Source of the DNA: Clostridia bacterium
GTDB taxonomy: Bacteria; Bacillota; Clostridia; Oscillospirales; CAG-272
Length of the DNA: 64,000 bases
NCBI GenBank assembly: GCA_017504605.1
Contig: JAFVQW010000041.1
Location: forward strand, 10,391-74,390
Direction: 5' to 3'
Shown here: positions 742 to 59,523 of the stretch, piece by piece
How the letters are laid out: each line of letters begins with the position of its first letter
How positions within the stretch are numbered: the stretch's first letter is position 1
Notes under the pieces: generated by a model
Database searches by the model: none
What the model was told of the DNA's origin: nothing
Seen by the model: the letters and a program-made list of their open reading frames with translations, nothing else
Made by a program: the position numbers and the translations under genes

Positions 742-3700
742 ATGCGAAACTTAGCAAAAATCTTGGCTCTTTTGCTTGTTCTTGCTCTTTGCGTTACCGG
801 TATCGTCCTTGCCGTAAGCGCTGACGAGCCTGAGCAGACAATCACAGAGCCGACCTTCGCCGGTATCAAGCCTAATCTTGTAAGGATTGACTCGGCGATA
901 GCAGCACAGCTTGTAGAAGCAGGATTTAATTATCTTGAGTTTGCAGACGAGGCTGCCTTCAACACCGCGAATGCGGGCGGATACGACGCTCTCGCAGCAG
1001 GCGGTAAGACGGGCGAGATCAACGTAACGGGCGGTACTTACATCTACCTGCTCGCTAATACGACCCTGAAGAGTTATTCGATCTCCGCACACAACCTTAG
1101 CACCTGGATTAACCTTGGCGGCAATAAGATTACCTGGCAGTGCAACGGCGGTACCGGTTATGCCCACAACCTCGCTGTATTTGACGGTGACCTTTATCAT
1201 CCGTGGTTTAGTGGAACCTCCGGCCACGCCGCTTACAGAATGTCCGGCGGATCTACGTCTAACGTCTCAGTGGAAAAAGTTACTTTTTCGACGAACAGCA
1301 CGAGCGGCAGATTCTTCTCGAGCGAGGGGACTGCTACTCTCAATCTTTACGTTAATGATTCGACTGTTAACGCAGCCGGCAAGCCGTTCGTTCACATGGG
1401 ATTTGGCGCGGGTGACGCACCCACTGTCAATCTCATACTAAAGAAAACCAACATTACAACTTCCGGAGCAGTTGTAAACTTTGATAATAGTATCTGCACG
1501 GATAAATCGAATCTGTCGATTTATATCGACGGTGCGTCTAAGCTTGACGCTATCATACTTGCAAATGCTACGATCATCACTCCTACCGTTACCGTTGCAA
1601 ACGGTGCGAGCTTCACCGCCAACGGCCGTGCTGCAGTTCAGTCTGCGGGCACTCTCGTTACCGAGAGCGGTGCGGAATTATACAACACCGAGGAAGGCAC
1701 TCATCCCTTCGTTATGATGGTGCCCCCCACCATTCCCGACGATACCAACTTCACCGCGAGTGCGGACTTCAAGACTGCTAACGGCGCTTTCGTCGTATAC
1801 GCTAACGAGTTCGACTTCTACGCAGACCTTGAGGGTGGCGTTATCGACGGTCTCGTTGACGGCAATAGCGTTATCGTTGACGACAACGGTGACACCTTCC
1901 CCACCTCGGGCTACGTTTGTATGCTTCAGAACTACACGCTCCAGCCCGCGTCGACAATCAACGTTACCGGAAAGCTGAAGATTAACCTCGGCGGCACCAC
2001 CTTTACCGAGTCGAGTATTGATACTCTTACCGTCGCTGCTAACGGAGTTCTCGGCATTTACAACGGTAAACTTATAGATGGCTTAAACAGCAATAAACCC
2101 ACGAACACTCTCCTTGCCGGTACGACTCTCAAGGTTAAGAACGTTACCCTTGAGACGACGGGCAACTGGGAGAACTGGTCTTCCACCTTCTGCTTTAACG
2201 GTACGGCTGACATAAGCTTCGAGGACTGTGTTATAAACCATAAAAGCATGCAGACGACTATCGTTAAGCTTGCCGGCGCGGCTTCCTATAACATAGACCT
2301 TAAGAACGTTAATTACAGTAACAGCAAGGGCCACACGATAGCTACCGTGCACAACAGTGGTTACAACTATATTAATAAGAACGGCTCGTACTACGGCTTC
2401 GTATCCACCAACGTGGCGGCTACGATTAATCTCAGCGTTGACAAGGACTGCGTTGTAAACAGCGGTATTCTCGTTAACGCCATGACAACCGGTGCTAAGA
2501 TTACGCTTAACGCCGAGCTCGGATTTAAGATCTGGAGCAACGACTTCACCACCAGTTACATTGTGAAGTCTGTTCAGGATCTGGTAAATAAGAATAACGG
2601 TCTTCCTTGGAACCCCGAATCTGATTTGACCTATACCGCCGTCACTATCGTTGACACCCTTAACTTCACGGAGAACGGCGAGATTGTTACGGCTTCGTTC
2701 GCGAAGAACGGCGACTTCTACGTCGCTTGGAAGGCTGCCAGCGTTACCTGGTACGACAAGAACGGCGATGTTATCTCCTCCGTCGATAACCTCACTCCCG
2801 ATATGGCGCTCACCGCTCCTAAGGAGTTCGTTAACGAAATTATCGCGGTTGAGGGCGGCTACGCTATCAGAGGCGGCGCTTGGTCCGATACTGAGGGCGG
2901 CAGTGCGGTTGAAATTCCCACCGAGATTACTGCCGGCGCAGCTTACGCCTTCTACGAGGTATATACCGAGCAGGCAGCTACCATCGTCGTATTTGACGGC
3001 GAGGGCGGTAGTGCCGTTGATGCATATGCTACCACGAAGCTTACCAAGGATATCGTAGGCGAGTTCCCCGCAGGTGCGTACGTTCTCGTTTGCACCGACC
3101 TTACCGTTGATTACGGCGAAGTCGTTGATATGACCTTTGACAACTACAAGGGCGACCTTACCATCGACCTTGGCGGAAAAACCCTCACCCAGACGAGCTA
3201 CGGCTGGGGTATCGGTATGGCGTGGGCTACTCCCGCGGCAGGCGTTACCGTAACCATTAAGAACGGTGCTATCAACGTTGCTACCACCGCTACCAGCCAG
3301 AATGACATTGCAACTCTTATCTCGGGCACGGGCGCAGGTACGCTTAAGTTCCACGGCGTTGACATCACCACCCTTGGCCACGTAGGTAACATCAAGGCAG
3401 GCAGCGTTGTATTCGAGCTCTGCACCATCAAGCAGCCCAATACCGCTACCAACTGGTCTACGTTCACAATTGCCGACGTAAGCGCGGAAACGAGCGTCGA
3501 CCTCCAGCTCCTCGGAACCTGTCTGAACGTTCAGCAAAATAACGGCGCAAGGTTCACTAGCATAAATGCGGGAACGTACGCGAAGAACATCAGCATCACC
3601 GTTTCCGACTACGAGGGTACGTACTCCTATATCAGGAGTGCATATCTCTACACCTTCACGAGCAAGGGAACCGAAAAGCTTCACGCAGATACCAAGCTTA

Positions 3701-4842
3701 GCTTCACGCTCGAGAACTGCTACGTAAGTGCATACAACAACATGATATCGGGCTGCGGCACGTTCCTTTGGGACACCGACGGCACGGGTACCTATGCGGC
3801 GAACGCTGCGCTTGATAAGCAGAACGTCTCCTTCACCTTCGACAACTTCTTCTATTCGAGAAACGACCTCTTTGATTATGAGAAGAGAAAGAGCCACGTA
3901 ATTCTTAAGACGGCTAACCTCAACGCGTATAAGATAGTTTCGACGGCGACCTCGAGCAACAGCTTTATTGCAATTCCCGAGCTCAATATAGACGTTAACC
4001 TTACGCTTTACAGCGACTTCAACCTTAACCTCTATATTCCCACCGACTTCGTGGCAGACCAGATTACCTATCTCGGTCAGGTTATATTCGATAAGTCGCT
4101 TGCCGACACCTACGACGTAGTTGACGGAAAGTATAAGATAGTTATCGAGAACATTGCTCCCAACAAGGCTGCGAAGAGCATAGAGCTCGGCTTCGTATTC
4201 AACGAGACCGTAACCTTCAACGAGGGCACGAGTATGAGAGACAGAGACATATCTCATACTCTTACCGCAAAGTATTCGGTAATCAAGTATGCGGCTGACC
4301 TCATCGCTACCAACGACGCTAAGAGCGTTGCAGCTATGAAGGCTCTTCTCGGCTACGTTGACGCAGCATATGACAACTTCGACGGCGACGAGAGCGACGA
4401 GGCTACCGTAGCTCTTCTTGACGAGCTTATCGCTGAGAACGGCGTTGCTGCATTCCTTGCGGGCTACACTCCCAAGGCGAGTGAGGGCGACACCGACTTC
4501 GTTACGGTCACCGGCGTTACCGCTGCCTTCCAGATTGGCGCCGTATCTAAGCTCTACGTGACGTTCCCCGCAGGCGCTGAGTGGTCTATCGTAGGCGACA
4601 AGCTTACTAAGACCGGCAAGGGCGGCGAGTGCGTAATCGAGCTTCCCGCATACGCTCTTACCGACGTGCTTACCATAACCGTTGGCGGCGAGACTGCTAC
4701 CTTCTCCTTCGGAGAGTACGCAGAGTATCTTATGAATGACGGCATTGACAACGCGACAGAGGACGCTGTTCTCGTTGCAATGTACGCATACGGCGAGACT
4801 GCAAGAGCTCTCAAGGCTCAGGTCGACGCCGAGAATGCATAA
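742..4842 (+). CDS. P1: 1366-aa secreted protein, largest (three-module) member of the paralogous P family, function unknown
   Basis: Has a ribosome-binding site (aaaaggag) and a Sec signal peptide (MRNLAKILALLLVLALCVTGIVLAVSA/DEP). Three modules each start [GA]Y[VI]..L and lead to INLGG/IDLGGxxLT. Also contains a VTWYDKNGD...GGAWSDTEGG segment and the family C-terminal domain (LTLYSDFNLNLYIP ... FSFGEYAEYLMNDG ... MYAYGETARALKA). Confidence 0.9.
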   Translation: MRNLAKILALLLVLALCVTGIVLAVSADEPEQTITEPTFAGIKPNLVRIDSAIAAQLVEAGFNYLEFADEAAFNTANAGGYDALAAGGKTGEINVTGGTYIYLLANTTLKSYSISAHNLSTWINLGGNKITWQCNGGTGYAHNLAVFDGDLYHPWFSGTSGHAAYRMSGGSTSNVSVEKVTFSTNSTSGRFFSSEGTATLNLYVNDSTVNAAGKPFVHMGFGAGDAPTVNLILKKTNITTSGAVVNFDNSICTDKSNLSIYIDGASKLDAIILANATIITPTVTVANGASFTANGRAAVQSAGTLVTESGAELYNTEEGTHPFVMMVPPTIPDDTNFTASADFKTANGAFVVYANEFDFYADLEGGVIDGLVDGNSVIVDDNGDTFPTSGYVCMLQNYTLQPASTINVTGKLKINLGGTTFTESSIDTLTVAANGVLGIYNGKLIDGLNSNKPTNTLLAGTTLKVKNVTLETTGNWENWSSTFCFNGTADISFEDCVINHKSMQTTIVKLAGAASYNIDLKNVNYSNSKGHTIATVHNSGYNYINKNGSYYGFVSTNVAATINLSVDKDCVVNSGILVNAMTTGAKITLNAELGFKIWSNDFTTSYIVKSVQDLVNKNNGLPWNPESDLTYTAVTIVDTLNFTENGEIVTASFAKNGDFYVAWKAASVTWYDKNGDVISSVDNLTPDMALTAPKEFVNEIIAVEGGYAIRGGAWSDTEGGSAVEIPTEITAGAAYAFYEVYTEQAATIVVFDGEGGSAVDAYATTKLTKDIVGEFPAGAYVLVCTDLTVDYGEVVDMTFDNYKGDLTIDLGGKTLTQTSYGWGIGMAWATPAAGVTVTIKNGAINVATTATSQNDIATLISGTGAGTLKFHGVDITTLGHVGNIKAGSVVFELCTIKQPNTATNWSTFTIADVSAETSVDLQLLGTCLNVQQNNGARFTSINAGTYAKNISITVSDYEGTYSYIRSAYLYTFTSKGTEKLHADTKLSFTLENCYVSAYNNMISGCGTFLWDTDGTGTYAANAALDKQNVSFTFDNFFYSRNDLFDYEKRKSHVILKTANLNAYKIVSTATSSNSFIAIPELNIDVNLTLYSDFNLNLYIPTDFVADQITYLGQVIFDKSLADTYDVVDGKYKIVIENIAPNKAAKSIELGFVFNETVTFNEGTSMRDRDISHTLTAKYSVIKYAADLIATNDAKSVAAMKALLGYVDAAYDNFDGDESDEATVALLDELIAENGVAAFLAGYTPKASEGDTDFVTVTGVTAAFQIGAVSKLYVTFPAGAEWSIVGDKLTKTGKGGECVIELPAYALTDVLTITVGGETATFSFGEYAEYLMNDGIDNATEDAVLVAMYAYGETARALKAQVDAENA

Positions 4843-4855
4843 GGAGGGACATAAA

Positions 4856-4966
4856 ATGAAAAAGTATGAATCTCCCGAAATCAAAATCACGAGCGTAGAA
4901 GCATCGGATATTATTACCGTGTCCTACGGTAGTACCCCCTGGCTTAACGCAGGATTTGAGTGGTAA
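4856..4966 (+). CDS. Conserved 36-aa peptide MKKYESPEIKITSVEASDIITVSYGSTPWLNAGFEW
   Basis: AAGGAGGGA lies 6 nt upstream of the ATG, and the gene starts 13 nt after the P1 stop. A second copy at 59409..59519 is 29/36 identical, with 9 codons differing only synonymously. Confidence 0.7.
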   Translation: MKKYESPEIKITSVEASDIITVSYGSTPWLNAGFEW

Positions 4967-4973
4967 AAGCCAC

Positions 4974-5206
4974 GTTCCATATCCCCCTCGCCCTCGGGCG
5001 AGGGGATATGGAGTTATATTGCTCGCGCGGCGAGCAGTTATATTGTTGCTTCGCAACAGTTATATTCGCCTTGCGGCGAGTTAGATTAAAGTGAAAGTTG
5101 AAAACCGAGAGTTGAAGGTGACCGTATACATTTTCAATTTTCCGTTTTCCATTTTCAATTAAAATAGCGCGCACAGCGCGCATTCTATACACCCCGGGAG
5201 GTAATT
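4974..5206 (+). repeat. Conserved intergenic cassette, copy 1 (strong hairpin + AGTTATATT/hairpin array + AGTTGAA/TTCAATT arms + 5' leader of P2)
   Basis: Near-identical to 8389..8625 and related to 59524..59713. Contains a 15-bp stem at 4977..5011 (ccatatccccctcgcc/ggcgaggggatatgg). AGTTATATT occurs at 5012, 5036 and 5058 (AGTTAGATT at 5079), separated by mini-hairpins. A gcgcgc-aca-gcgcgc hairpin precedes the ribosome-binding site GGGAGG. Confidence 0.85.
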
Positions 5207-8200
5207 ATGAAAAAAATGAGAAGGCTTTTTGCTCTTTTGACCGTGGCGGCGCTTCTGTGTGCCGCGCTCACGCTCGCGGTGGGCGCGAATACCGACGGCG
5301 CGGGAGCCGAATATCTTGACGAGGTGCCCGAGGACCTGAGCTTCACCGCGACTTCCGAGCTCGCGGCGGCCTCCGGCAGCTACGTCGTCTATGAGAGCGA
5401 GCTCGACTTCTACCGCGACCTCGAGAACGGCGTTATCGACGGCCTCGCGGACGGTGAGAGCGTTATATCCACAAAGACCTTCACGGATTTCCCGACCTCG
5501 GGCTACGTGTGTATGCTTAAGAACTTCACCCTTCAGCCGAAGACGGTCGGAAGCCCCGTAAGCATTCCCGCGGGCGGCTCGCTTAAGATTAATCTCGGCG
5601 GTCACACCTTCACCGAGAAGGGCTGTGCGGGCAAGAGCGGAAACACCGACGGCTGTACCCCCATATCCGTCGGCGCCGGTGCTACACTCGGCTTCTATAA
5701 CGGCTCTCTTGTGGATAGCCTGTCGAGTAAGTTTACCACCAACCTCATGGCCGCGGGTGCGAGACTCGAGCTTCGGGATATCAACCTCACCGCGAGAATG
5801 ACCTGGGAGAACTGGTCGAGCACCTTCCAGTTCAACGGCGCGGGCAGTGTGCTTATGGATAACTGCAAGGTCACTCAGGGCACCCAGGTAACCGTATTCT
5901 ATATGAACGGCAACAGTACTCTTGACTTCGATATTCGGGGGCTTGACTATACCGACAACGGAACGCACACCCTCTACAACAAGAACACCGGTGCCGTGCA
6001 GAATAACGGAGCCTTCTACGGTATGATTTCGACCTCGAGAGCGGGTGCAACCCTCAATCTTAACGTTGACGGCGACACCGTCGTTCGCTCGGGCAACCTC
6101 GTAAACTGCTCCGTCTCGGGAGCTACGGTAAATCTCAACGCCGAGGTCGGCTTCACAATGGCGCGCGAGAGCTTCGTTAACGATTACATACAGCACTCCG
6201 CGTTCCAGAACTTCAGCTCCGTCGACAGGCTCAGCGTTATCGTCGACGGCGTCGTTGACAGCGAGAGCAACGCTACCTTCGTTTCATCGGGTGGCCTCTA
6301 CGTTCTTAAGATAATTGATGCAACGATTTATTGGTACGACGAGCACGGCGTGCTTCTTTTCGAGCAGAGTGCCGTGTCGGGTGAGATTCCCGCGTACGAC
6401 TACGCGCTCCCTGCGTTCGGTGTTTTTGGCGACGCGGCCTACAAGCTCACCGCGGGCGGCTGGGCTCTCTCGGCCGACGGTGACGTTCTCGACGAGCTTT
6501 CCCCCGTTATGAAGTCTGAGGGCGAGAGAAAATATTACTACGTTCCCGAGAAGACCGCTCTTGCGGTTGCCGTCTTCTCCGATGACACCTGTCGGAGCAT
6601 TGTCGGCGGCTGGGTCGACAGACAGATAACGAGAGAGCTTCTCGCTACAATCCCCGCGGGTGCCTACGTTAAGCTCTTCGGCGATATAGGCGTGAACCCC
6701 GGTCTCACGGATGCCGCCGCTACTGTAATGGATAATTACGCAACGGGTATAGTCTTTGACCTCTCGGGCTACACGATGGTTCACCTGAAGGAGGGCGAGT
6801 CGGCTAAGCGCTGGGCCCCCCTTGACGGCAAAACCATCACCTTCAAGAACGGAAAAATGCAGGTAATAGGCGAGGACAGCCTCATCTGTTCCGAGGCAAG
6901 CGGCGGCAGCATCAGGCTCTATGACGTTCTGCTCGTCTCGGATGCCAAGACCGCGCCCATTCTCGAGCTTCGCTCGGGCAGGGTAGAGCTATATGGCGGC
7001 TCGATATTCTCGCTCGGCACGACTCCGATTTCCTGTAATGCCTACAGCTCCTCCTCGAGCGCTACGCTTACGCTCGGGCTCCACGGAGTTGATATAGATG
7101 CGGCCGATAATCCTCTTATGACCGTCTCCGTCGCGCAGAAGGCCGACAGGGCGGCCGCCGTAGACGTCACGGTCGGCGCGTATGACGACGTGCCCACCAC
7201 CCTTCGCTCGGGCTCGTTTATTTCCTTCGGTGATATGACGGCTCTCTCGAGGGCCACCACCGTCACCGTATCCGTAAGAGACACCTACGCTCTCCTTACG
7301 GGCGAGGCTCTCGTCGGTGCGGACGGCGCTATTGCGACCTGGTACGATGCCGTGACGGGCAACTCCGCGGCAGACACCGCGACCGAGGCTCGCAATATAA
7401 GGCTTTCCTTCGACAATTATTACACCAACCGTCGGCTTACGCAAATCGGCTCGGCGAGCCTCGAGTGCGGCGTTACGATCACAGCGGAGGGTATGGGCCG
7501 ATACACCGTAATTTACAGTGCGCCGAAGCTCGAGGGCCCCATGGCCTCTCTCACTCTCGAGAGCGACTTCGACCTCAACCTCTACGTTCCACAAAGCTCG
7601 AACGTAGTTAAGATAATGATAGGCGATGCGGTTCTCTTCGACCGTAACGATCCCACAACCTACGAGCTCTCCGAGGGCGTTTACAGATTCGCTATATCGG
7701 GCATATCCCCCGAGAATGCGGCAAGCTATATCGCTCTTGATATAACCTACGTCGACGAGATCGTGGTTCCCGAGGTGGGGAAGGCCGAGCTCGACTTCAC
7801 CGTCCGCGCCTACTACTCGGTGATAAATTATGCCGAGGACCTTCTCGAGAGTGCCGACGGCACCACCGAGGCTAAGAACGCTATGAGGGCGCTCCTCGCA
7901 TACGTTCGCGCGGCGTATGACAACTTTGAGGGCAGTGGCAGCCCCGAGCTTCTTTCAAGACTTGACAGCCTTTACACCGAGTACGGTGCAGGGGCGTACG
8001 TTGACTCGCTCGCGGGCGATATTCGCGGCGATGATAGCGACTTCGGTGCTGAGAGCGGAATTACCGCACAGTTCGCCATAGGCTCGGTAACGAAGCTCTA
8101 CATCAGCTTCCCCGAGAGCGTGGACTACGTCATCACCGACGCCGAGAGCGGCGTCACGGTGGCTATCGGCACGGGCAGAGCCTGCACGGTAGAGCTCCCC

Positions 8201-8383
8201 GCATATCTTCTTGCCGAGACTCTTGAGATTACCGTCGGCGACAAATCCGCTATCTTCTCCTTCGGCGAGTATGCCGATGCGCTTATGAATGACGGCACAG
8301 AGAACGCCTCCGAGGATGCGGTGCTCCGTGCTATGTACGCGTACGGCAGGGCGGCGAAGGCGCTTCGCGCGGCTAAGGCCTGA
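5207..8383 (+). CDS. P2: 1058-aa secreted protein of the P family
   Basis: Signal peptide MKKMRRLFALLTVAALLCAALTLAVGA. Family motifs present: YVVYESELDFYRDLENGVIDGLADG, GYVCMLKNFTLQP...KINLGGHTFTE, IYWYDEHG, FDLSGYTMVH, LTLESDFDLNLYVP, FSFGEYADALMNDG...MYAYGRAAKALRA. Confidence 0.9.
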   Translation: MKKMRRLFALLTVAALLCAALTLAVGANTDGAGAEYLDEVPEDLSFTATSELAAASGSYVVYESELDFYRDLENGVIDGLADGESVISTKTFTDFPTSGYVCMLKNFTLQPKTVGSPVSIPAGGSLKINLGGHTFTEKGCAGKSGNTDGCTPISVGAGATLGFYNGSLVDSLSSKFTTNLMAAGARLELRDINLTARMTWENWSSTFQFNGAGSVLMDNCKVTQGTQVTVFYMNGNSTLDFDIRGLDYTDNGTHTLYNKNTGAVQNNGAFYGMISTSRAGATLNLNVDGDTVVRSGNLVNCSVSGATVNLNAEVGFTMARESFVNDYIQHSAFQNFSSVDRLSVIVDGVVDSESNATFVSSGGLYVLKIIDATIYWYDEHGVLLFEQSAVSGEIPAYDYALPAFGVFGDAAYKLTAGGWALSADGDVLDELSPVMKSEGERKYYYVPEKTALAVAVFSDDTCRSIVGGWVDRQITRELLATIPAGAYVKLFGDIGVNPGLTDAAATVMDNYATGIVFDLSGYTMVHLKEGESAKRWAPLDGKTITFKNGKMQVIGEDSLICSEASGGSIRLYDVLLVSDAKTAPILELRSGRVELYGGSIFSLGTTPISCNAYSSSSSATLTLGLHGVDIDAADNPLMTVSVAQKADRAAAVDVTVGAYDDVPTTLRSGSFISFGDMTALSRATTVTVSVRDTYALLTGEALVGADGAIATWYDAVTGNSAADTATEARNIRLSFDNYYTNRRLTQIGSASLECGVTITAEGMGRYTVIYSAPKLEGPMASLTLESDFDLNLYVPQSSNVVKIMIGDAVLFDRNDPTTYELSEGVYRFAISGISPENAASYIALDITYVDEIVVPEVGKAELDFTVRAYYSVINYAEDLLESADGTTEAKNAMRALLAYVRAAYDNFEGSGSPELLSRLDSLYTEYGAGAYVDSLAGDIRGDDSDFGAESGITAQFAIGSVTKLYISFPESVDYVITDAESGVTVAIGTGRACTVELPAYLLAETLEITVGDKSAIFSFGEYADALMNDGTENASEDAVLRAMYAYGRAAKALRAAKA

Positions 8384-8388
8384 CGGCT

Positions 8389-8625
8389 GTTCCATATCCC
8401 CTCGCCCTCGGGCGAGGGGGATATGGAGTATATTGCTCGCGCGGCGAGCAGTTATATTGTCGCTTCGCAACAGTTATATTCGCCTTGCGGCGAGTTAGAT
8501 TAAAGTGAAAGTTGAAAACCGAGAGTTGAAAGCTGTGCCGTTTTTTGCACTTTCAATTTTCCATTTTCCATTTTCAATTAAAATAGCGCGCACAGCGCGC
8601 ATTCTATACACCCCGGGAGGTAATT
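8389..8625 (+). repeat. Conserved intergenic cassette, copy 2 (upstream of P3)
   Basis: Same hairpin (8392..8426), same three AGTTATATT/hairpin units and same leader as copy 1. Identity continues through the first 21 nt of the downstream CDS (atgaaaaaaatgagaaggctt). Confidence 0.85.
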
Positions 8626-11600
8626 ATGAAAAAAATGAGAAGGCTTACGTCGTTTGTTCTCGTGCTCGCGCTTATAGCGGCGGTGCTCGCGAGTATGCCC
8701 GCCGACACGGCACTCGCGGCAGAGGCGGGGAATAGCGAATACCCAACGCCCGATGCTGCTCTTGCTGAGACAGCTACGTCGGATACGAGAGTGAGAAGAA
8801 TTACAGATACGACCTCGCCGACGGAGTATTCGACGGCATAGCACTCGGTAAGTCGGTTATCGTTGCCTCGCTTTCCAATAAGGTAAGCGCGACGTTTTCA
8901 CCGTCCACAACGGCTAACGGATATATAGTTTGCTTAAAGGACGTCGACCTCGTCGGCTCGGGCACGAATAATCGCTTCCAGATGGGCGCGACTCAGGAGC
9001 TCACCGTCGACCTTTCGGGTCACAAGATGAATATGCTCGGCGAGATATCGATTGGAGGCGCGGGCGGCATTATGTCCTCCGTCCTCACCGTTAAAAACGG
9101 TACGATGATGCTCGAGGGCTCGCTTCAGTCCTCGGGGAAATCTATGTATCAGCTTATCGCACTCCGCCGCGGAGCGAAGATGTATCTCAACAACGTCGAC
9201 GTTGTTCACGGCAAGACGGCGAGGTATTCCATTTTCATTTACGATAACGGCGGCAGCGTTTATATGACGAACTCCTCTCTCGACCTCGGCCCGCGCACCT
9301 TCTGCGCGCTCTACCTTACGAGCTTGAACTGCACCTGTAATGACTGCGCACAGGACAAGACGACACGCGAAACTCAGGAGTTTATCTTTGACGGAGTTAC
9401 CGTCTACTCGGCACAGGTTCTTTTCACTGTAAACCCGAAGGCGCACGGCTTGGACGGCGACTATTACAACGCGGTTGCAGACATCGCCTTCAAGGGCGGC
9501 TCCAAGATTAAAACGACCTCCCGAGCCCCGAAGAGCCTCTTTACCTTCGGTGACGAGTCTAAGAACGCGGCGGCAATCGCGGCGATGAGGGCGTCGAAGA
9601 TGAACCTCACCTTTGAGGAGGGAACGGCGTTCTCAGAGGCGGCCTTCCTCGACGGCGAGCTCGCGGCTAAGTACACTCTTACGGTCGTTGACAAGAACGG
9701 AGACCCGATTACCGACTATCGGACGGGATATTCCGCGGACGACACCTTCCCCGAGATGATTGCGAGAAACGAGTACACGGTCAGCTGGTATGCCTACGAC
9801 GGCACGCTCCTTGAGGCTATTAAGTACGCCGAGGGGGCCACTCCCTCGCACTCCGCTCCCGAGCACCCCGACAATCTCACGATGGATGCCGAGGGCAACG
9901 TGCTTCTTAAGCGCCACGACGGCTGGTCTCGGACCGAGGGCGCAACGACGGCTGAGGCTATTACGGCTGTTTTGGCGGATACCGCCTATTACGCCGTATA
10001 CGCCGACGAGCTCGCGGCAGTTTATACCAAGGACTCGGGCGGCAACCTCACCGCGGGCTTCCGCGATGCCGATATCGGCTCCGAGGCTATAGCGGCACTC
10101 GCCAACGGCTCCAAGCTTTATCTTAATACCGATGCTACTCTTTCGCAAAATATAAGCACACCGAACCTAAGCATTGAGCTTCAGGGAAATACCCTCACGC
10201 TCCTCGGCGCGGCCCTTATCCCGAGTGGCACTATGACCGTAAGCGGCGGTACGCTTCTTGCCGACGGAGTATGCCCCTTCGTTATCGACGGTGGCGCGAT
10301 GCTCACTCTTAACGGCGTTTCGGTCTCGGCCATCGATGCAGTAATTGCCGAGATAAATAACGGAGTAATAGAGGTTGTCGGCGGCGAGCTCCGCGCGAGC
10401 TCTGCTACTATGATGGGCGCTATCGCGGCCTACGGTAATGCGGAGGTGATAATTCGCGGTGCGAGCGTGCGCACGAGAAACGCATTCGGCAGCTCCGCCG
10501 TCGTATATGCGGCGTCCGGCGCCTCGATCGTAAGCGTAAGCGTAACGAACAACGGCGGCACCGACCCCCGCTTTAACGTAGACGGCACTCTCATTTACGC
10601 TGACGGCGACGTCGGCTACGGAGTGGTTGAGGCTACGGTTGTAGATACCGATATTTTCCATCTCGGCGAGCTCGTTGCGACCTCCGCAGAGACTGCCGAT
10701 TTCGTCGACGTAATTATCCGAAACGCAAAAATCGGACGTCAGTCGAGCGGCGCTAATTTCCGCACCCAGAACGGCGCGCCCCTTTATACACCCCTTGACC
10801 CCAATACTCCCGTGACCGACATAGATGTCGAGTTCGAGGTTTACTCCTCGCTCACCGTTTCTAAGGAATTCACTCTTAACTTCTACATTCCCGAGGGCAG
10901 CCCCGTTGTCGACGTTATTGTCGGCGGCGTGTCCTACTTCGACGTTAACAGCCTTGATTCTTACGAGAAGACGGTGCACGAGGGCGTGTCCTGCTATCGC
11001 GTTGAGTGCGGCAGCTTCACCGCAAAGAACGCTATCTCCGCGCGCCGCGTGCAGTACGTTATCGAGCACGAGGGAGGGCGTTACTCGCTCGACAGCACCT
11101 ATTCGATTGTTGAGTACTGCGCCGACGTTCTCGCGGGCGACTATTCCGACATTACCAAGACGCTGATGCTCGACATTCTCTGCTATATCAGAGAGGGCTA
11201 CGACTTCTTCGTCGGCGGTGGCGCCACCGAGGAGGAGCTTGCACTTGTTGATAGCCTCATCGGTGACTACGATTCCAAGGAGGAGATACCCGCGGACACC
11301 GCCGACCTCTCGGCACTCTCGGGCCTCGTTTCCTCGGTACAGTTCGCGGCAAATGACAGAATTACGATGAGAATAGCTCTCACCGAGGCCGCAAAGAGCG
11401 AGAAAATAAGAATTTATTACGGCACCGCGGCCGCGCTCGCGGTGAACGGCACCGATGCCGATTTCCTTGAAATCGACGTTCCCCTCTTCGCTCTTACCGA
11501 TACTATACAGATAGTCGTCGGCGAGGCGAGCGCGGAGTACAGCTTCGCGGCCTACGTCGCGGCGGTTGCCGACGCCTACTCCGAGAGCTGCCCCGAGCTC

Positions 11601-11705
11601 TGCGATATGCTCGCGGCGACTCTTCGCCTCGGCAAGAGCGCGAGAAGGTACGAGGGCGCGGGACTGCCCGATACGCCGAGTATCGAGCCCGACTTCGAGT
11701 TCTAA
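8626..11705 (+). pseudogene. P3: P-family member interrupted by a frameshift near 8767-8775 (or an assembly error)
   Basis: The signal-peptide ORF 8626..8841 (MKKMRRLTSFVLVLALIAAVLA...) is in frame 1. Family homology (SYVGYESEKNYRYDLADGVFDGIALG...VDLSGHKMN) continues in frame 0, which opens at 8769 after a TGA at 8766-8768 and runs to 11705. The 8982 ATG is internal. Confidence 0.7.
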
Positions 11706-45098: not shown

Positions 45099-48095
45099 AT
45101 GAAAAAAACGAACGGGAAGAGGATAGCACTTTTGGCGGTGACTGTGCTTATGTGTGTTGCCGCGGTCTTCACGCTTGCCACGTCTGCGGCGAGGGTGGGC
45201 AGTCTCGACGAGGCTAACCGACTTCTTGAGCAGGTGAAAAAGGTAGATATAGGAGAGGACAGCGCGGCGGCGTGCGAGGAAATGTCGAGCGCCATCTTCA
45301 ATCTTCGCTCCTACATACTTCGTATGCCTCTTGACGAGAGCGAGAGCGGCTATAACGAGTTCGCCTTCGAGTACGGCAAGGAGCAGTTCAGATATGCCGA
45401 GCTGATAATGAAGGTGTTCGACGAGGCGAAGGAGAAAACCGATGCAAGCGGCAATCCCTCCCCCGACGTTCCCGCGATGCAGAGCGCGCTTGACGACATG
45501 TTCGTGCTTCTTTCCGCCGATGATTTTATGATAGAGCGAGCGCTCGTTTATAATGAGGGTGAGGACGGAGTTTTCAGTGCGGATTACGATGCTCTTAACG
45601 AGAAATACGCCGAGGCTCCCTTCGGCTGCGTAGAGGCTATGCTTGACAATCTTCCGAACGAGGCGGATATGGCGGCGGCGCTTACCAACGCGGCGGCGTT
45701 CATCGAGCGAAACGGAATTAATATTAATGATGCAAGCAACGCGAGCATCAAGGAAAAGCTTTTTAACGCGAGACTTGCTTGCGCTAACGGGCTTCTCGAT
45801 GCGGTTGCCGACGATGCCGCGGGGATTGACGCGCAGAAGAACGGCGTGGCACTCCGTAAGCTCTCGGCGTTTATCAAGGCAAACCCTCTCGGTAAGGACG
45901 AGACCGAGGGCAGCGATTATATGACCTTTATGGCCGCGTATGAGCAGCGTATTGAGGTACAGAACGAGGCGCTTCGCGCCGCTCGCGAGGCTCTTACGTC
46001 CAAGGCGAGCTTCGGCGACCACTACGCGGGAGTGCTCTTCTTCAAGGGAACGGCCTTCGCCGTAGGAAATCAGTCTATAAACTATGCCGACGTTGACAGT
46101 GGCGCCGACGGCGACAACGAGTACTTCACCGTCAGATATGAGAACACAAAGGTGACCCATACTCATATAAGCACCGCGAGCGTTCCCGACAACAGTCGCG
46201 GCGTCGTCGTGGAGTTTGACTTTACCACCTTCGGCGATATGCCGAGCGGCTCGGTCATCATCGAGCGCGGCTCGTACACCTTCCCCGACGGACAGACCTC
46301 GGGAGTTGAGTTCTTTAAGATAAACAAGGACGGTGTCACGATAGGAAACACGACCGTCGCGGGGCTTGTACAGCCCGGCGAGTGGACGCACTTCACCCTC
46401 ATTATCGACCCCGATTGCAATGCTACGCTCTACGTCGATTACGTGCTTGTCGGCAGTGTGAGCCTTAAGGTAAGAAACTACGTCTTCGAGATTGGCGCTA
46501 TAAGAATGGGCGCACAGGCGGCCTCGGGTGAGTTCTCGATTGACAATTATATGGCGTATACCGGCACCTCGATACGCGACTGCGACTATCTCGCACAGCT
46601 CCGTGCCGATACCGAGGCCTACTTCGTACGTCTTTATCAGGGACTTAAGCACAGGCTTACCGACCACAGGGTGCTTCTCAACATCTACGACGAGTGCGCG
46701 GCGCTCGTTAACGAGTTCACTCCCGAAACCGAGGAGGGCATAGCGGCCGTCGAGGCCTTCCGCGCTATGAGCCGCTCCGACGTGCAGGATAAGGCGCTCG
46801 AGAATGCGAGAGAGAAGCTCGCGGAGAAGATAACCGCAATCAAGGATAAGCCGCGCGACAGCTCGACCTCTAAGGAGCGCATAGCGATGCTCTCCAACCT
46901 TGATAAATTCCTTGCCTACAACGAGGGCATTATGAGCGAGACCGAGAACGACGAGCTCTACGTTGCGATACAGAAAATAAAGAAGCAGCTCGACGACGAG
47001 GACTTCGTAGCCCTTCTCGTTACGGCTGTGAACGACTTCTTCGCCGAGAGCGATGCGTTCAAAATTAAAGCAAAATACGATATGGCAAAGAAATACATTA
47101 CCGAGGCCGAGAGCGACGAGGAGATTATGGCTATGCGCCGTCTCTCGGGCTTTGCGAGCTTCTCGGTTGCGTACGAGCGCTTTAAGACCGAGGGTCCTAC
47201 CCACTACGGCGACCTCGTCAGCATTGACAACACCGAGATTTTCGTGTCTATGATGAAATACGTTGCGTCGCTTATTTCCGACCCCGATTGGAAGACCAAG
47301 CATTACGACGAGATTGACAAGTACATAATGCTTGCCTCCGAGCGCGTGGAGGATGGAGCCTACGACGAGCTTTACAGCGGCTTTAGCGAGGCCTACGAGG
47401 TATATCTCGAGTACGCTCACTACTTCTTCCTCGAGCGTCAGCCGGGATATATTACCGAGCTTCGCGGCCTGCTTGATAAATGCATAGCCGCGGTTCACCC
47501 GGTTGAGAAGGCGGGCGTGATCGCGTACATCGGCGACTATATAGACAACACCGACCTTGATTTTGAGAACTCCGAGATTATAGCACTCGTTGACGAGTAC
47601 GAGGAGCTTCTCGCGACCCTTGACGGTGCCGACGGCGCGTACGAGGAGCTTCGCACGGAGTATACCGAGAAATTCATTGAAGCCGTGGCGCTTATTGCCG
47701 AGGCGGAGGGATACGCCGCTCGCCGAGCGCTCGCGGACGAGGCGCGTGTATATTATACGCACATTAACAGAACGGGCGACGGGGTCTCGGCCGCAGAGGC
47801 AGAGTACCTTGAGATTGAGGCCGCTCTTGGCGCGGTGGAGGCTGTTGCAAAGAGATTTATCTCGGAGTATGCGCTTTTAGCCTCTGCACGTACTAACGAG
47901 GAGCGCTTCGCCGCACTCGTTACCCTCTCGGCTCTTTACGCCGAGGGAATAGAGACCGAGGTGGCGGGTGCCGCCGCGGCAATTGACGGATACAATTCCG
48001 CAATCGACGATATGAACGAATTTATAAACAAGCATAACGGCGAGCTTGATGAGCTGCTTCGCGCATCGCTTGCAGCGCTCGTCAAGGCTAAATAA
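45099..48095 (+). CDS. 998-aa secreted, mostly alpha-helical protein with a central LamG/concanavalin-like insert; function unknown
   Basis: Ribosome-binding site ggagg and signal peptide MKKTNGKRIALLAVTVLMCVAAVFTLATSA. Flanks are rich in A, E and L. The central segment YFTVRYENTKV...GEWTHFTLIIDPD...FSIDNYMAYTG looks LamG-like. Confidence 0.8.
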   Translation: MKKTNGKRIALLAVTVLMCVAAVFTLATSAARVGSLDEANRLLEQVKKVDIGEDSAAACEEMSSAIFNLRSYILRMPLDESESGYNEFAFEYGKEQFRYAELIMKVFDEAKEKTDASGNPSPDVPAMQSALDDMFVLLSADDFMIERALVYNEGEDGVFSADYDALNEKYAEAPFGCVEAMLDNLPNEADMAAALTNAAAFIERNGININDASNASIKEKLFNARLACANGLLDAVADDAAGIDAQKNGVALRKLSAFIKANPLGKDETEGSDYMTFMAAYEQRIEVQNEALRAAREALTSKASFGDHYAGVLFFKGTAFAVGNQSINYADVDSGADGDNEYFTVRYENTKVTHTHISTASVPDNSRGVVVEFDFTTFGDMPSGSVIIERGSYTFPDGQTSGVEFFKINKDGVTIGNTTVAGLVQPGEWTHFTLIIDPDCNATLYVDYVLVGSVSLKVRNYVFEIGAIRMGAQAASGEFSIDNYMAYTGTSIRDCDYLAQLRADTEAYFVRLYQGLKHRLTDHRVLLNIYDECAALVNEFTPETEEGIAAVEAFRAMSRSDVQDKALENAREKLAEKITAIKDKPRDSSTSKERIAMLSNLDKFLAYNEGIMSETENDELYVAIQKIKKQLDDEDFVALLVTAVNDFFAESDAFKIKAKYDMAKKYITEAESDEEIMAMRRLSGFASFSVAYERFKTEGPTHYGDLVSIDNTEIFVSMMKYVASLISDPDWKTKHYDEIDKYIMLASERVEDGAYDELYSGFSEAYEVYLEYAHYFFLERQPGYITELRGLLDKCIAAVHPVEKAGVIAYIGDYIDNTDLDFENSEIIALVDEYEELLATLDGADGAYEELRTEYTEKFIEAVALIAEAEGYAARRALADEARVYYTHINRTGDGVSAAEAEYLEIEAALGAVEAVAKRFISEYALLASARTNEERFAALVTLSALYAEGIETEVAGAAAAIDGYNSAIDDMNEFINKHNGELDELLRASLAALVKAK

Positions 48096-48113
48096 TAAGA
48101 AAGGAGAGAAAAA

Positions 48114-51100
48114 ATGAAAATCAGAAAAACGAGCAGCAGAATACTGTCCTTTTTACTTCTCCTTTCTATCATAGCATCTCTGTTTTCGGTTTTTGCCTAT
48201 GCCGCGACTGACGAGAGTGTCGGTACAGCCGAGAGTGCGGAGGGAGCAGGACTCAGCGTAGTCTATAACAGAGGCTTCGCCGAGGGTTGGGATTACACCA
48301 ACGGACTTACCCCTTATATCGAGGGTGACGTTTCCTACGGTATAGAATACGTGAAGATGAGTGCCTCGAGGTACGAATACTATCTCAACGTTGAGGTAAA
48401 CGGAGAGAGCGAGGGCTACCTTGAGATTGATGCGGGGGATAATCTCCCCGCCTCGGGCAAGCAGTTCCTTACCTTCGATGCCCGCGCCGAGGAGGATGCG
48501 GATATTGTCGGAGCCGTAATTGCTATGACGGCGGGTGAGGGCTCGGCCTCGGAGATGATGCATCTTCTGTCCTACGTCGACGGCGAGATTTACTCGCTCG
48601 GAAGGAAGGTAGGAGAGGCTGACGGCAGCTGGCAGCACTTCTTATTTGAAATTGATTACGACTACGAGGGCGAGAGCGAGAGAGAATTTCTCGTAACCCT
48701 CTATCTTGACGGCGAGGCCTTCACGAGCGTACAGAGCGCGGGCAAGGGCGGCTTCGGCATCGGCAGCGTGCTTATCGGCGCAGGCGCCGACGAGGACCGC
48801 ACGGGCGGCTCCTATCAGCTCGATACGGTTGCGCTCTACCACGGAGTAGACGCCCCGACCGATATTCCGAACGGAAACTTCGGCACGGCGGTAGACAGAA
48901 CTCTCGTGCGCAACTTTACCATTCTCGGCCTCGGTGAGAGGACCGACGACCCGAACGTGCTCTCGGGCACTCCCGCGCTCGACCGTATCAGCACCTCGAG
49001 CGTCAGCGTGCTTTACAACCGCCACTATGGCGAGGGCTGGGATTGGAGCAACGGCTTCAACAGCCTCAGCACGAGCAAGCTCGCGAGCAATCTCGCCGAG
49101 CTTCGCAGCGATTACAGCTTTATAGTCAACAAGAGCGAGAACTTCCTCAACCATTATCTTGCGATTGAGAAGAAGAACGACACGCTCGGCTACGTATATC
49201 TCGCACCCGAGTCAAACGACAACTCGCCGCTTATAGCGAGCACCTCGGGTAAGGTGTTCATCGAGTTTGATATGAAGACCTCGGATAACAACGGCACGAT
49301 GCTTCTCACTCTTATAACCGACCCGAAGTCAGAGGGTGACACGCTCGTCTACACCGATAACGGAGAGCTCTATCTGCTCGGCCGGAAGGTTGGTACCGTC
49401 GGCGGCGAGTGGCTCCGCATTTCGATAATGCTCGATTTTGCGGGCATATACCGCGACGGCTCCTACAGTGCCGAGGCGCATTACGGCTCCGAGGGCGGGG
49501 TCGTGTACTCCTCCTATACCGCTACGACCCCGACCGTTACGAATTTGAGATTCGGCACGGCGGATAAGAAGGCCGGCAACACGGGCGACTGGTTCGGCAT
49601 CGATAACCTCGCGGTTTATTGGGGTGCCTCTACCTTCGTCAATCTCCCGAGTGACGAGCTCGGTGAGCTCGTTAATACGAGACTTGAAAAGGATTTTGCA
49701 CTCTCCGTCGAGGGCGAGTCGCTTACGGTGAACGAGATTTACAATGCCTCGCTTACTATGAAGGTCGGCTCGAGCTTCGCATATCTTCTCGGTAAGCAGG
49801 TGAAAATCTACGAGACCGAGAGCGGCGAGCGCTACGGTGCACCCGTTAAGGTTGACGGCAAGGTTCTCCTGCCGCTTCAGTCTATTATCGACTTTACGGG
49901 AGCAACGCTCATTCCTCACGATGACTTCAAGAGCTTCGAGGTCTTCCTCGGCTCGACACTCTCGTACCTCACGCTCGGCTCGACCGATGCTATAATCGGC
50001 GGTAAGCGTGTCAGCCTCGCGGCGGCTCCCGCGGTGGTTGAGGCGGGCGAGGGAATGTCCTACGTGGTTATCGGAATGGACGACCTTGAGGCTATTTTCC
50101 CCGGCTTCTACGTGGTTTGGGACGATTGCGGACTTCTCACGGTTACCGAGTATAAGAACTTTATAAACAGAAATATGAGCGGCGCGTTCGATACTATGGT
50201 ATCGATTATGCGTAAATTCCTCTACGATTACGTGGACGGGGATACCGTTTACGAGATGGCGAAGGAGCACACGAACAACTTCGACCACCCCTACCTGTTT
50301 GCTAATCAGGATAAGTTCGACGAGCTTCGGAGAGTATATTACGCCGCACCCGGCGACGAGGACTTCAACGCCGAGCTCGCGGGCTATATGCAGGTTCGCG
50401 TTGACCGTGCCGACGAGCGCCTCGGAGCGCTTGCCGAGCTTGACGAGACGGGCAGATACCTCGGTGTTAAGCCCGAGAAGATTCCCGTGAACACCAACTA
50501 CGTCACCGAGCCCGGCAACAACGGCTACGACGTCGGCGGACGACTTAATCTTATTTACCGTGACGATTATACCGGCGCTCTTGAGGATATTGCCTTCGCA
50601 TACCAGGTTACGGGCAATACCGTCTACGCCGAGTTCCTTCTCGACTTCATCGGCTACTTCTGCGACGACGAGCTCTGGCCTCACTGGGGTCCCTCTCACT
50701 TCCTTAACGTCGCGGAGAGCGTTATACACATGGCGATAGCCTACGACTGGTGCTACGACGCGTGGATGGAAATAAGCCCCGAGCAGACTATGCACATAAG
50801 AGCGAAGCTCTATGAGAAGGGCGGCTATCACGGCTACAACTCGATGCTTACGACCGTTTGCCCGAAGGAATTTATATCGGCTAAGGGCTACCGCTGCTAC
50901 AACTACCACATAACGACTAACAACTGGAACACGGTATGCTCGAACGGTATGGTGGTCACGGCGCTCGCGCTCTTTGACATTGACACCAACGCCGATATGG
51001 ATAAAATCAATAACAACGAGGCCCTCTCGCAGATGAAGGCGCTCGTTTCGGGCGATATCCGAAGCCTTGTCAACTACGCGATGCATTACTACCAGTTCGA

Positions 51101-52658: not shown

Positions 52659-52675
52659 GGTCGAAAGGAGAGAAT

Positions 52676-55777: not shown

Positions 55778-55788
55778 GTTTAAAAAAG

Positions 55789-56170
55789 CCTCCACTGTTC
55801 TAAATCCAAGCCGACGAAGGAGGCTTGGTATGGCATCACGCGTTAGCGTGTATGGAATCCCGACTTCGTCGGGTATGGCATCAGCCGAGGGGCTGTATTT
55901 CGTCGGCTTGATTCCATGCCGTCTGAGACGTATTCCATACCGCCACAAGTGGCGGATTCCATCCACGGCTTCGCCGTGATTTGAAGAAAACTAAAGCTTA
56001 TAACCTCCACTGTTCTAAATCCAAGCCGACGAAGGAGGCTTGGTATGGCATCACGCGTTAGCGTGTATGGAATCCCGACTTCGTCGGGTATGGCATCAGC
56101 CGAGGGGCTGTATTTCGTCGGCTTGATTCCAAGCCGTCTGAGACGGATTCCATACCGCCATGGGCGGACT
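55789..56170. repeat. Two tandem copies of the type A hairpin-punctuated repeat element
   Basis: Copy A is about 55789-55987 and copy B about 56004-56170. Both start cctccactgttctaaatccaagccgacgaaggaggcttggtatggcatc and carry 3 forward GTATGGMATC units and 2-3 reverse GATTCCATAC-like units. They are homologous to 376..647. Confidence 0.85.
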
Positions 56171-56224
56171 GCTCTAAAAATGCATAATGCAGAATTCATA
56201 ATGCATAATGCATAATTAATTAAT

Positions 56225-59519: not shown

Positions 59520-59523
59520 AACC

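Follow-up and report, generated by a model that had tools for sequence, protein, structure and literature searches.

Linear polyphosphorylated peptide (LPP) precursors (LppA) and the lasso-peptide leaders of Bacillota are the closest described systems to the small gene examined here (PMC13381572). These are short precursors with a well-conserved N-terminus and highly variable C-termini, present in one to three genes per locus, and they carry close to the N-terminus a [Y/W]xxPx[L/V/I/F/A] motif that a discrete RRE (RiPP recognition element) binds as an extended strand. The Bacillota LPP precursors follow the pattern YxxPxVLxHQxIxFET|xxS and are cleaved after the Thr, while in lasso leaders the conserved Thr lies at position -2; the Thr at or next to the cleavage site is followed 2-3 residues later by a conserved Ser. 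LPP and lasso precursors sit inside clusters that encode an RRE, a SipW-like or B2 peptidase, an HprK-like kinase, an NTP transferase or cyclase, and an MsbA-like exporter. A different arrangement exists in dispersed multi-precursor families such as the prochlorosins, in which many ProcA peptides with a shared leader and diverse, hypervariable, Cys/Ser/Thr-rich cores are served by one ProcM and most copies lie far from any maturase. QhpC, the small gamma subunit of quinohemoprotein amine dehydrogenase, is a Cys-rich peptide of Proteobacteria, confined to one enzyme family, that lacks a Sec signal but carries a leader; it is cross-linked by an adjacent radical-SAM enzyme, processed and exported by its own adjacent protease and ABC exporter, and then joins large Sec-exported subunits encoded in the same operon. 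Signal-less inhibitors such as barstar, the staphostatins, Spi of SpeB and IFS of SPN are folded domains of 90-160 aa, each specific to one enzyme family and encoded immediately downstream of, and co-transcribed with, a secreted protein gene. Finally, ComX-type pheromone precursors lack a signal peptide and have a conserved N-terminal part and a short variable C-terminal part with an essential Trp, and comX lies directly behind the modifying enzyme gene comQ and next to the receptor gene comP.

The window analyzed here is a 64,000-nucleotide stretch from a Clostridia bacterium (GCA_017504605.1, contig JAFVQW010000041.1), and the genes, ribosome-binding sites and hairpins given below with coordinates lie on its forward strand. 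P1 (742-4842) encodes a 1366-aa secreted protein with an N-terminal Sec-type signal and a TAA stop at 4840-4842. The ribosome-binding site AAGGAGGGA at 4841-4849 overlaps the last two bases of this stop codon, and its GGAGG core lies 8 nt before an ATG at 4856, 13 nt after the P1 stop. The resulting ORF (4856-4966, 36 codons plus TAA at 4964-4966) encodes MKKYESPEIKITSVEASDIITVSYGSTPWLNAGFEW, which contains no Cys and no hydrophobic signal segment. A strong GC-rich hairpin at 4977-5011 (fold z-score -7.9 for 4960-5100) directly follows the stop codon and resembles a terminator closing the P1-peptide transcription unit. A second copy at 59409-59519, MKKYESPEIVITNVNSSDIITASYGTTPWLNAEFEW, is 81% identical and has its own AAGGAGGGA at 59394-59402; it lies 13 nt after the stop of a 1040-aa secreted paralogue of P1 (56273-59395, NCBI locus tag IKA64_05515, "hypothetical protein") and is followed by a hairpin at 59529-59563 homologous to that at 4977-5011. 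The same hairpin also follows P2, a paralogue with the same C-terminal domain that carries no peptide. The start pattern occurs twice in the window, against 0.06 expected from shuffles.

The preliminary description of the locus, which reported a conserved 36-aa peptide gene with a strong ribosome-binding site directly behind P1, is confirmed. The two copies within the window do not prove coding on their own, because the flanking non-coding DNA is equally conserved. However, three further results do. Coding constraint had been proposed beforehand as a test of the gene, and dN/dS is 0.13-0.26 among copy 1, copy 2 and a metagenomic relative (L132), with values of 0.13-0.15 for copy 1 against copy 2 and L132. 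The peptide is 86% identical in L132, where the C-terminus of the neighboring protein is only 39% identical, and in another locus (L141) a 35%-identical partner is again followed by TAAGGAGGGA...ATGATGAAAAAGTATGAATCCCCCGAA. Homologous small proteins are also abundant elsewhere. The absence of a maturase, ABC exporter or kinase nearby, also stated in the preliminary description, is likewise confirmed, as all ORFs of at least 150 aa between 12 and 44 kb of the window are housekeeping genes.

A word-indexed search recovered 94 related small proteins, and an exhaustive profile search returned 1551 clusters (50% identity) at E<=1e-3, of which the top 150 are all 30-63 aa and contain no fusions of the module to larger proteins. 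The family is found in gut and rumen Clostridia, including Lachnospirales that carry MKKYEKPEIKIASFDSENVVSTSAGVNLTKFNTTNKYTSIEF. Copies 1 and 2 score 53.9 bits (E 8e-15) and 53.6 bits, respectively, against the family HMM. No Pfam or NCBIfam model was reported for the window peptide at permissive E-values (NCBIfam <=1, Pfam <=0.1), and for 29 diverse members scanned at E<=5 only single-member hits at E 0.04-0.2 appeared. Sources name the proteins only "hypothetical protein"; neither the NCBI annotation nor one ENA assembly calls the gene, and the exact sequence of copy 2 appears, without a name, in ENA gene calls only. A full-text search of 8 million papers for the strings MKKYE[KTSARV]PE gave no hits, nor did the supplement of the human-microbiome small-protein survey. 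A 511-aa "histidine kinase" in the cluster of one family member is a clustering artefact.

Members of this family consist of two parts. The first is an almost invariant N-terminal module, M-K-K-[Y/F]-E-x-P-E-φ-E-φ-x-x-F-x-V-E-D-V-I-T-x-S, which in the window peptide corresponds to residues 1-23 (4856-4924) with Y4-x-x-P7-x-I9 followed by D18-I-I-T21-x-S23. The second is a lineage-specific tail of 7-39 aa (median 19 aa, and 8-14 aa in many members) that is strongly acidic, rich in Gly, Asn and Thr, nearly free of Cys and often contains Trp. In the window peptide this tail (residues 24-36, 4925-4963, GSTPWLNAGFEW) is acidic and aromatic and ends in Trp, and its motif [SD]TPW[LT].A.[FC]EW is conserved in copy 2 and in the family members P0002, P0127 and P0187. 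Column statistics on 216 members show Y (88%) or F (12%) at the first motif position, P in 100% at +3, and I/L/F/M in at least 83% at +5 (I 55, L 13, F 9, M 6), so that the N-terminus fits the motif bound by discrete lasso RREs. A Thr (72%) lies 17 residues after the Tyr, with a Ser (83%) two residues later. AF2 of the peptide alone shows no fold; the N-terminal module is modeled as extended with pLDDT about 82, whereas the tail has a pLDDT of 51-58. Within a lineage the tail is at least as conserved as the leader, and hypervariability of the kind seen in classical RiPP cores was not shown.

The strongest family-wide regularity is position. Members lie 12-40 nt downstream of genes for Sec-secreted surface, glycan-binding or hydrolytic proteins of many unrelated families, and they close the transcription unit, being followed by a terminator. 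Of 23 complete upstream ORFs, 22 have a Sec-like signal, the exceptions being later genes of tandem peptide arrays. Readthrough or frameshift fusion to the upstream protein was rejected, as the stop-to-ATG gaps vary and fall in different frames, and 25 of 33 distinct contexts match AGGAGG at 5 or more of 6 positions, 6-11 nt before the start. Partner domains include LRR_5, AXE1, Laminin_G_3, NPCBM/F5_F8/Big_3, GH43-related, GH16/CARDB and an HtrA-like protease. A shared C-terminal docking domain was sought in the upstream proteins and rejected, as their C-termini fall into at least 14 unrelated BLAST clusters. Pfam, NCBIfam and PDB sequence searches with the upstream giant proteins of the window found nothing. 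The AF2 model of the 1040-aa paralogue (pLDDT 68.5; the partner alignment is shallow) is predicted to contain two beta-rich modules and a C-terminal beta-sandwich plus helical bundle, and Foldseek returned no significant match, only weak parallel beta-helix hits.

No RRE, peptidase, kinase, radical-SAM enzyme or dedicated exporter lies near the gene in the window. No recurrent maturase or exporter was found across about 57 family loci (about 25 independent locus types), and no PqqD, peptidase S26, HprK or radical-SAM domain appears in the Pfam-annotated neighborhoods, whose additional neighbors are unrelated to each other. MsbA-type ABC pairs lie near only 2 of about 25 locus types, which is about the chance level. 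The leader ends in I-T-x-S and lacks the GG motif of double-glycine leaders (LSxxELxxIxGG-type, ending in GG/GA/GS), and there is no C39 or ABC exporter gene in the window. If the core is taken to start at S23 (SYGSTPWLNAGFEW), positions 7-9 are W, L and N and the only Glu is at position 13, which does not satisfy the lasso requirement for Asp or Glu at position 7, 8 or 9, and there is no cyclase gene. Neither window copy contains Cys, and only 4% of family tails contain any (two or more in 1.4%), excluding lanthi-, sacti-, ranthi- and thiopeptides; the sole model hit was one member at E about 0.04 to thiopeptide precursors. No cognate receptor or processing gene of the known Gram-positive pheromone systems (Rap/PlcR/Rgg, AgrB/AgrC, ComQ/ComP) is adjacent in the window or in related loci, and the peptide lacks the Sec signal of Phr-type precursors.

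Compared with LPP precursors, the window peptide shares the Y-x-x-P-x-φ motif and has a Thr followed by a Ser near the predicted end of the leader, but none of the genes of LPP and lasso clusters lies near it or its relatives, the HQ and FET residues are absent, the Y-to-T distance is 17 rather than 15 residues, the taxon is Clostridia rather than Bacilli, and the invariant neighbor is a Sec-secreted protein gene upstream; the spacing differs from the lasso consensus as well. Like the prochlorosins, the family comprises many paralogous small genes per lineage with a shared leader-like part and diverse C-terminal parts, but its tails are almost free of Cys and conserved within a lineage, and prochlorosin genes are not tied to the 3′ ends of secreted-protein genes. 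QhpC offers a parallel for a small leader-bearing peptide without a Sec signal that joins co-encoded Sec-exported proteins, but it is Cys-rich and has its modifying, protease and exporter genes adjacent. In contrast to the downstream inhibitors, a single family of 30-60-aa proteins with a common N-terminus accompanies many unrelated secreted proteins.

The interpretation offered in the preliminary description, a leader plus core as in a RiPP, pheromone or small regulatory precursor, is partly supported. The ORF is a genuine gene, the MKKYE.PE...DVIT.S mini-ORFs of other Clostridia that it mentioned exist as a very large family, the two-part shape holds family-wide, and the link to the upstream giant protein, offered only as an alternative, proved to be the main regularity. 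That the peptide is a RiPP, a pheromone or a regulator was not shown, nor was a chaperone specific to P1, since paralogues with the same C-terminal domain lack the peptide and the partners across the family are unrelated. The evidence establishes, from sequence, that both copies are real, translationally coupled small-protein genes of a very large unannotated family with the anatomy and position given above. Everything concerning function is inferred, including recognition, processing, modification and export. We tentatively propose that the N-terminal module acts as a leader recognized as an extended strand by a shared factor encoded elsewhere in the genome, most likely an RRE-type protein working with a leader peptidase and an exporter, although no such machinery has been identified. 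Cleavage would fall near the conserved I-T-x-S (around T21/S23 here) and release a short acidic Trp peptide, roughly VSYGSTPWLNAGFEW. Made in step with the upstream secreted protein, the released peptide may act outside the cell in the same process as its co-expressed surface protein, as a cognate ligand or accessory piece or as a modified envelope peptide, rather than as a free-standing antibiotic. A similarity consistent with action outside the cell occurs in one lineage only (loci L129-131, L033 and L091), where the tail DGDISANPWxxLFKD matches the sequence directly after the signal peptide of adjacent secreted proteins with alignment scores of 64-75. No such similarity exists for the window peptide, whose best tail match (WLNPGFD, in ArgC) is coincidental, and a weak similarity of the leader to a beta-hairpin segment near the C-terminus of P1, P7 and P8 (score 43, estimated E about 0.05) was judged not significant. 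Three paralogues in the window with the same C-terminal domain (P2, P6 and P8) carry no peptide, so a strict one-to-one partnership is not obligatory. The leader spacing, which differs from both the lasso and the LPP consensus, and the conservation of the tail within a lineage, unlike many multi-precursor RiPP families, also count against this reading.

An unlikely but not negligible alternative is that the peptide is never exported and serves as a cytoplasmic escort or guard, made stoichiometrically with the upstream pre-protein. In this view the conserved module would bind something common to all partners, such as the signal peptide or a Sec/targeting component, and the tail would contact the specific cargo, keeping the pre-protein export-competent or inactive until secretion, comparable to the action of barstar, staphostatins, Spi and IFS. 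The peptide lacks a signal while 22 of 23 partners have one, the tight stop-RBS-start spacing implies coupled translation, export is the only feature shared by the diverse partners, no export or maturation genes are nearby, and in L129 the tail mimics part of the neighboring secreted protein as Spi mimics the SpeB propeptide. However, 36 aa with an extended or disordered predicted shape is very small for a specific inhibitor or holdase, paralogues with the same domains do without the peptide, the peptide evolves far more slowly than the adjacent partner region, tandem arrays of several different peptides follow a single secreted-protein gene, and the [Y/F]xxPxφ...T.S pattern is typical of processed leaders. 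Less likely still is a pheromone reporting expression of a particular secreted "public-good" protein to neighboring cells, with a shape resembling ComX and other C-terminally derived Gram-positive pheromones. Tails are short, 55% contain Trp (against 0.5% of leaders) and 59% have an aromatic residue among the last four; lineage-specific tails would give signal specificity, and both co-transcription with secreted glycan-active proteins and the tandem arrays are compatible with this role. Yet no RRNPP/Rgg regulator, histidine kinase, or AgrB or ComQ analogue is adjacent in any locus, each of the many paralogues would need a receptor, and the peptides are strongly acidic, unlike the hydrophobic SHP/XIP-type or cationic CSP-type signals.

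A classical antimicrobial RiPP or bacteriocin precursor whose biosynthetic cluster lies elsewhere is very doubtful. The leader-plus-core shape, the RRE-type motif and the marginal thiopeptide-model hit of one member speak for it, but it is opposed by the near absence of Cys, the unmet lasso requirement, the lack of nearby immunity, exporter or maturase genes, the anionic character of the peptides, and the consistent placement behind secreted-protein genes, which has no rationale for a bacteriocin. That the ORF arose by chance within a conserved 3′ UTR, terminator or repeat element is scarcely tenable. The equally conserved flanks within the window, the missing annotations and a resemblance of the region just downstream to the Gut-1 RNA motif could be read this way, but the dN/dS values, the family-wide ribosome-binding sites, the 1551 clusters and the retention of the ORF where flanks have diverged argue against it, as does the conservation of the amino-acid motif with free codon choice, all four Pro codons being used at P7 across 41 distinct DNAs, and no Rfam family overlaps the ORF above noise.

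A more far-reaching possibility, which we consider unlikely on present evidence but not excluded, is that gut and rumen Clostridia possess a previously unrecognized, secretion-coupled peptide system. Hundreds of different surface-protein genes would each carry a leader-tagged, acidic Trp-peptide gene at the 3′ end, one genome-wide RRE-type recognition, cleavage and export machinery would process all of them, and each released tail would act outside the cell as the cognate accessory of its co-expressed protein, as an anchor, plug, activator or identity tag. This would constitute a new class of ribosomal peptide whose "cluster" is a secreted-protein gene rather than a set of enzymes. Small proteins are routinely missed by annotation, and a family HMM would immediately allow annotation of thousands of genes as well as a phylogenetic-profile search for the missing partner machinery. 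The positional rule and the RRE-like leader together offer a testable entry point into how these abundant but poorly studied bacteria handle or decorate their large surface and glycan-degrading proteins, and into whether RiPP-type leader recognition is used for something other than antibiotic synthesis. Further precursor-like features of the family are the occurrence of two to four of its genes in tandem arrays and the presence of tandemly repeated tail modules within single peptides, as in the members P0095 and P0210.

The ORF reported in the preliminary description is present as described. P1 (742-4842), a protein of 1366 aa with a Sec-type signal, ends with TAA at 4840-4842, and the sequence AAGGAGGGA lies at 4841-4849. 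The ATG is found at 4856, 13 nt after the stop, and the ORF runs to TAA at 4964-4966, encoding MKKYESPEIKITSVEASDIITVSYGSTPWLNAGFEW, which contains no Cys and no hydrophobic segment. A degenerate search for the start (MKKYE) identified exactly one more site in the window, at 59409, which also lies 13 nt after the stop of a 1040-aa paralogue (56273-59395); shuffled sequences predict 0.06 matches against the 2 found. The second peptide is 81% identical to the first.

The two copies in the window are embedded in a duplicated block whose non-coding parts are just as conserved, and consequently they prove nothing about coding by themselves. Evidence from outside the window settles the question. A metagenomic relative (peptide P0002, locus L132) keeps the peptide at 86% identity, while the adjacent C-terminal 185 aa of its upstream protein are only 39% identical to P1. 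Nei-Gojobori dN/dS is 0.15, 0.13 and 0.26 for the three pairs. A 35%-identical homologue of the upstream protein (P0268, at the metagenomic locus L141) is again followed by TAAGGAGGGA...ATG ATG AAA AAG TAT GAA TCC CCC GAA at the contig end. Across 41 distinct family DNAs, all four proline codons are used at the invariant Pro, and 25 of 33 distinct contexts carry a 5-6/6 match to AGGAGG 6-11 nt upstream of the start. The start at 4856 is the family-wide N-terminus and is preferred over the in-frame ATGs at 4736 and 4835, which were used in ORF listing and by one gene caller.

To define the family, we searched genomes, metagenomes and protein collections. A genome scan found five Clostridia MAGs carrying 36-46-aa ORFs that begin MKKYESPE, and a metagenome scan for MKKYExPE found about 57 loci with family members. 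A profile search of 5.8 billion proteins returned 94 small proteins, none of which had a Pfam domain and for which the only name was “hypothetical protein.” An exhaustive HMMER search of 1.84 billion cluster representatives returned 1551 proteins at E<=1e-3, of which the best 150 are all 30-63 aa with no fusions to larger proteins. One member occurs on more than 1000 contigs of human-gut Lachnospirales and Clostridia. No Pfam or NCBIfam model matches, and the motif strings appear in no paper of the library searched. The window itself belongs to a “Clostridia bacterium” MAG (locus tags IKA64_), in which neither NCBI nor an ENA assembly calls the peptide gene.

An alignment of 216 members defines an N-terminal module, M(96%)-K-K-[Y 88% / F 12%]-E(96%)-x-P(100%)-E(87%)-[I/L/F/M]-E-[I/V]-x-x-F(66%)-x-V-E-D(75%)-[V/I]-I-T(72%)-x-S(83%), followed by a tail with a median length of 19 aa (range 7-39) and a mean net charge of -3.4, rich in Asp, Gly, Asn, Thr and Glu. 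Cys occurs in only 4% of tails, whereas Trp occurs in 55% of tails but in 0.5% of leaders, and an aromatic residue lies among the last four in 59%. Between lineages the tails are unrelated. Within a lineage, however, the tail is conserved, often more than leader positions 9-17, for example in TFTEGxxDNETGWLDKWTSGI, in DIDGGxTxFxxxWL (sometimes duplicated in one peptide) and, in the case of the window, in [SD]TPW[LT]xAx[FC]EW. AF2 with a 62-sequence alignment predicts an extended N-terminus at pLDDT about 82 and a tail at 51-58, with no regular secondary structure.

The one constant neighbor of the peptide gene is upstream, where a same-strand ORF ends 12-40 nt before the peptide start. Among non-redundant cases with a complete upstream ORF, 22 of 23 have a Sec-like signal by a hydrophobicity heuristic, and the exception looks 5′-truncated. 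The four cases without an upstream ORF are later genes of tandem arrays, or a soil outlier. The partners are heterogeneous, including BspA-type LRR_5, an AXE1-like esterase, Laminin_G_3, NPCBM+F5_F8+Big_3+Flg_new, GH43-related, GH16+CARDB and an HtrA-like protease, as well as several proteins with no Pfam match. Their C-termini form at least 14 unrelated BLAST clusters, and no other gene recurs across lineages.

Within the window, the genes between 12 and 44 kb are Trk, rhamnose catabolism, RNase R, tadA, rimM/trmD, uvrC, pheST and arginine biosynthesis. Eight large (907-1514 aa) proteins, mostly with Sec signals and without any Pfam, NCBIfam or PDB sequence match, fill about 40% of the window (742-11705 and 45099-62929, forward strand). 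At least five of these are paralogues sharing an ...AMYAYG... C-terminal domain, and only one distant homologue (35% identity) was found among 5.8 billion proteins by a word-indexed search. The AF2 model of the partner of copy 2 (pLDDT 68.5) shows two beta-rich modules and a C-terminal beta-sandwich plus helical bundle, for which Foldseek gives only weak parallel beta-helix hits. Three window paralogues that share the AMYAYG-type C-terminus (P2, P6 and P8) have no peptide, and P2 carries the same terminator and intergenic block with the peptide gene precisely absent. In one paralogue, the 907-aa ORF at 8982-11705 (forward strand) has no signal peptide, while a 71-aa ORF with a typical signal peptide (8626-8841) lies just upstream in another frame, suggesting a frameshifted pseudogene or an assembly error.

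The intergenic regions of these giant genes contain further elements. Just downstream of the terminator hairpin of the peptide (5011-5091, forward strand) lie three hairpins, each flanked by AGUUAUAUU, which match the Rfam Gut-1 RNA motif (RF01706) below threshold, at 41 bits against a gathering score of 50 (E 5.5e-7 in a 261-nt search). The same array follows P2 (8425-8505, forward strand) at 32 bits, whereas the copy after peptide 2 has a single hairpin and gives no hit. Gut-1 is a “human gut only” candidate ncRNA of unknown function (PMC2864571), and here it sits in the 3′ region of giant secreted-protein genes. A conserved AT-rich block (GTTGAAA.CCGAGAGTTGAA...CATTTTCAATTTTCCGTTTTCCATTTTCAATTAAAA) at 5096-5164, 8515-8583 and 59603-59671 (forward strand) lies upstream of three of the paralogous giant genes (starts at 5207, 8626/8982 and 59702) and is a candidate shared promoter or operator; its 36-nt core occurs 3 times against 0 expected. 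In addition, a 157-nt direct repeat (55789-55945 and 56004-56160; 99% identical, spacing 215 nt) lies in the intergenic region between two giant-protein genes.

Several features of the family bear on its possible mechanism. The N-terminal module fits the [Y/W]xxPx[L/V/I/F/A] motif bound by discrete lasso RREs. It also resembles the leader of the recently described Bacillota LPP peptides, YxxPxVLxHQxIxFET|xxS, which is cleaved after the Thr by a SipW-like peptidase presented by an RRE, with a conserved Ser that is phosphorylated and C-termini that vary (PMC13381572). In the window peptide, Y4, P7 and I9 are followed by the conserved T21 and S23; however, the spacing differs (17 against 15 residues), the HQ and FET residues are missing, and none of the LPP enzymes is nearby. 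In one lineage (metagenomic loci L129-131, L033 and L091), the tail DGDISANPWxxLFKD is nearly identical to the sequence directly after the signal peptide of the adjacent 188- and 318-aa Lys-rich secreted proteins, with scores of 64-75 (at 8768-10141 in L129, where the tail is DGDISANPWENLFKD). That tail motif therefore also exists as an extracellular N-terminus, with the family leader standing where a Sec signal stands in the neighbors. At locus L129 a second family member (49 aa) follows a 2638-aa GH16/CARDB protein 8.5 kb further on. Tandem arrays of two to four different family genes within about 1 kb (metagenomic loci L022, 284-1190; L019, 482-1226; and L097, reverse strand, 4649-4939) and repeated tail modules are typical of precursor peptides. 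In L097, the array lies directly behind a 945-aa secreted protein and 1.4 kb upstream of an MsbA-type ABC transporter gene. Finally, the tight coupling implies production in step with the secreted protein.

We consider it established that this is a real gene of a large, undescribed small-protein family defined by a leader-like N-terminus and by 3′ coupling to secreted-protein genes. The mechanism, including recognition, cleavage and any activity outside the cell, is inferred. The most economical reading is that the conserved module is a recognition leader for shared machinery encoded elsewhere, that the peptide would be cut near I-T-x-S, and that the acidic Trp-containing tail would act outside the cell in the same process as the co-expressed surface protein. 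This reading is tentative, although we favor it over each alternative. The proposal in the preliminary description that the peptide has the shape of a leader plus core, as in a RiPP, pheromone or small regulatory precursor, is partly supported: the two-part shape holds across the family, whereas an identity as a RiPP, pheromone or regulator is not shown.

The main rival, which we consider possible but unlikely, is that the peptide serves as a cytoplasmic escort or guard. This would explain the missing signal peptide and the missing exporter, but it fits poorly with the arrays, with paralogues that lack the peptide, and with a peptide that evolves much more slowly than its partner. A pheromone would be consistent with the size of the tail and its Trp, yet there is no receptor, and this role appears improbable. 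A classical bacteriocin or RiPP is more doubtful still, being disfavored by the lack of Cys, the anionic character and the gene context, while a non-coding artefact is effectively excluded.

By architecture, the family is closest to RRE-dependent precursor peptides, but it departs from them in gene context and consequently is not assigned to the lasso, LPP or other known RiPPs. The combination of a huge family, no local enzymes and obligate placement behind unrelated secreted-protein genes appears undescribed. Although unlikely on present evidence, there is a real chance that it represents a new kind of secretion-coupled peptide system. Beyond the giant-protein genes, a 208-aa ORF on the reverse strand of the window (63255-63881) with no Pfam match ends in a run of about ten (G)LPE tetrapeptide repeats.
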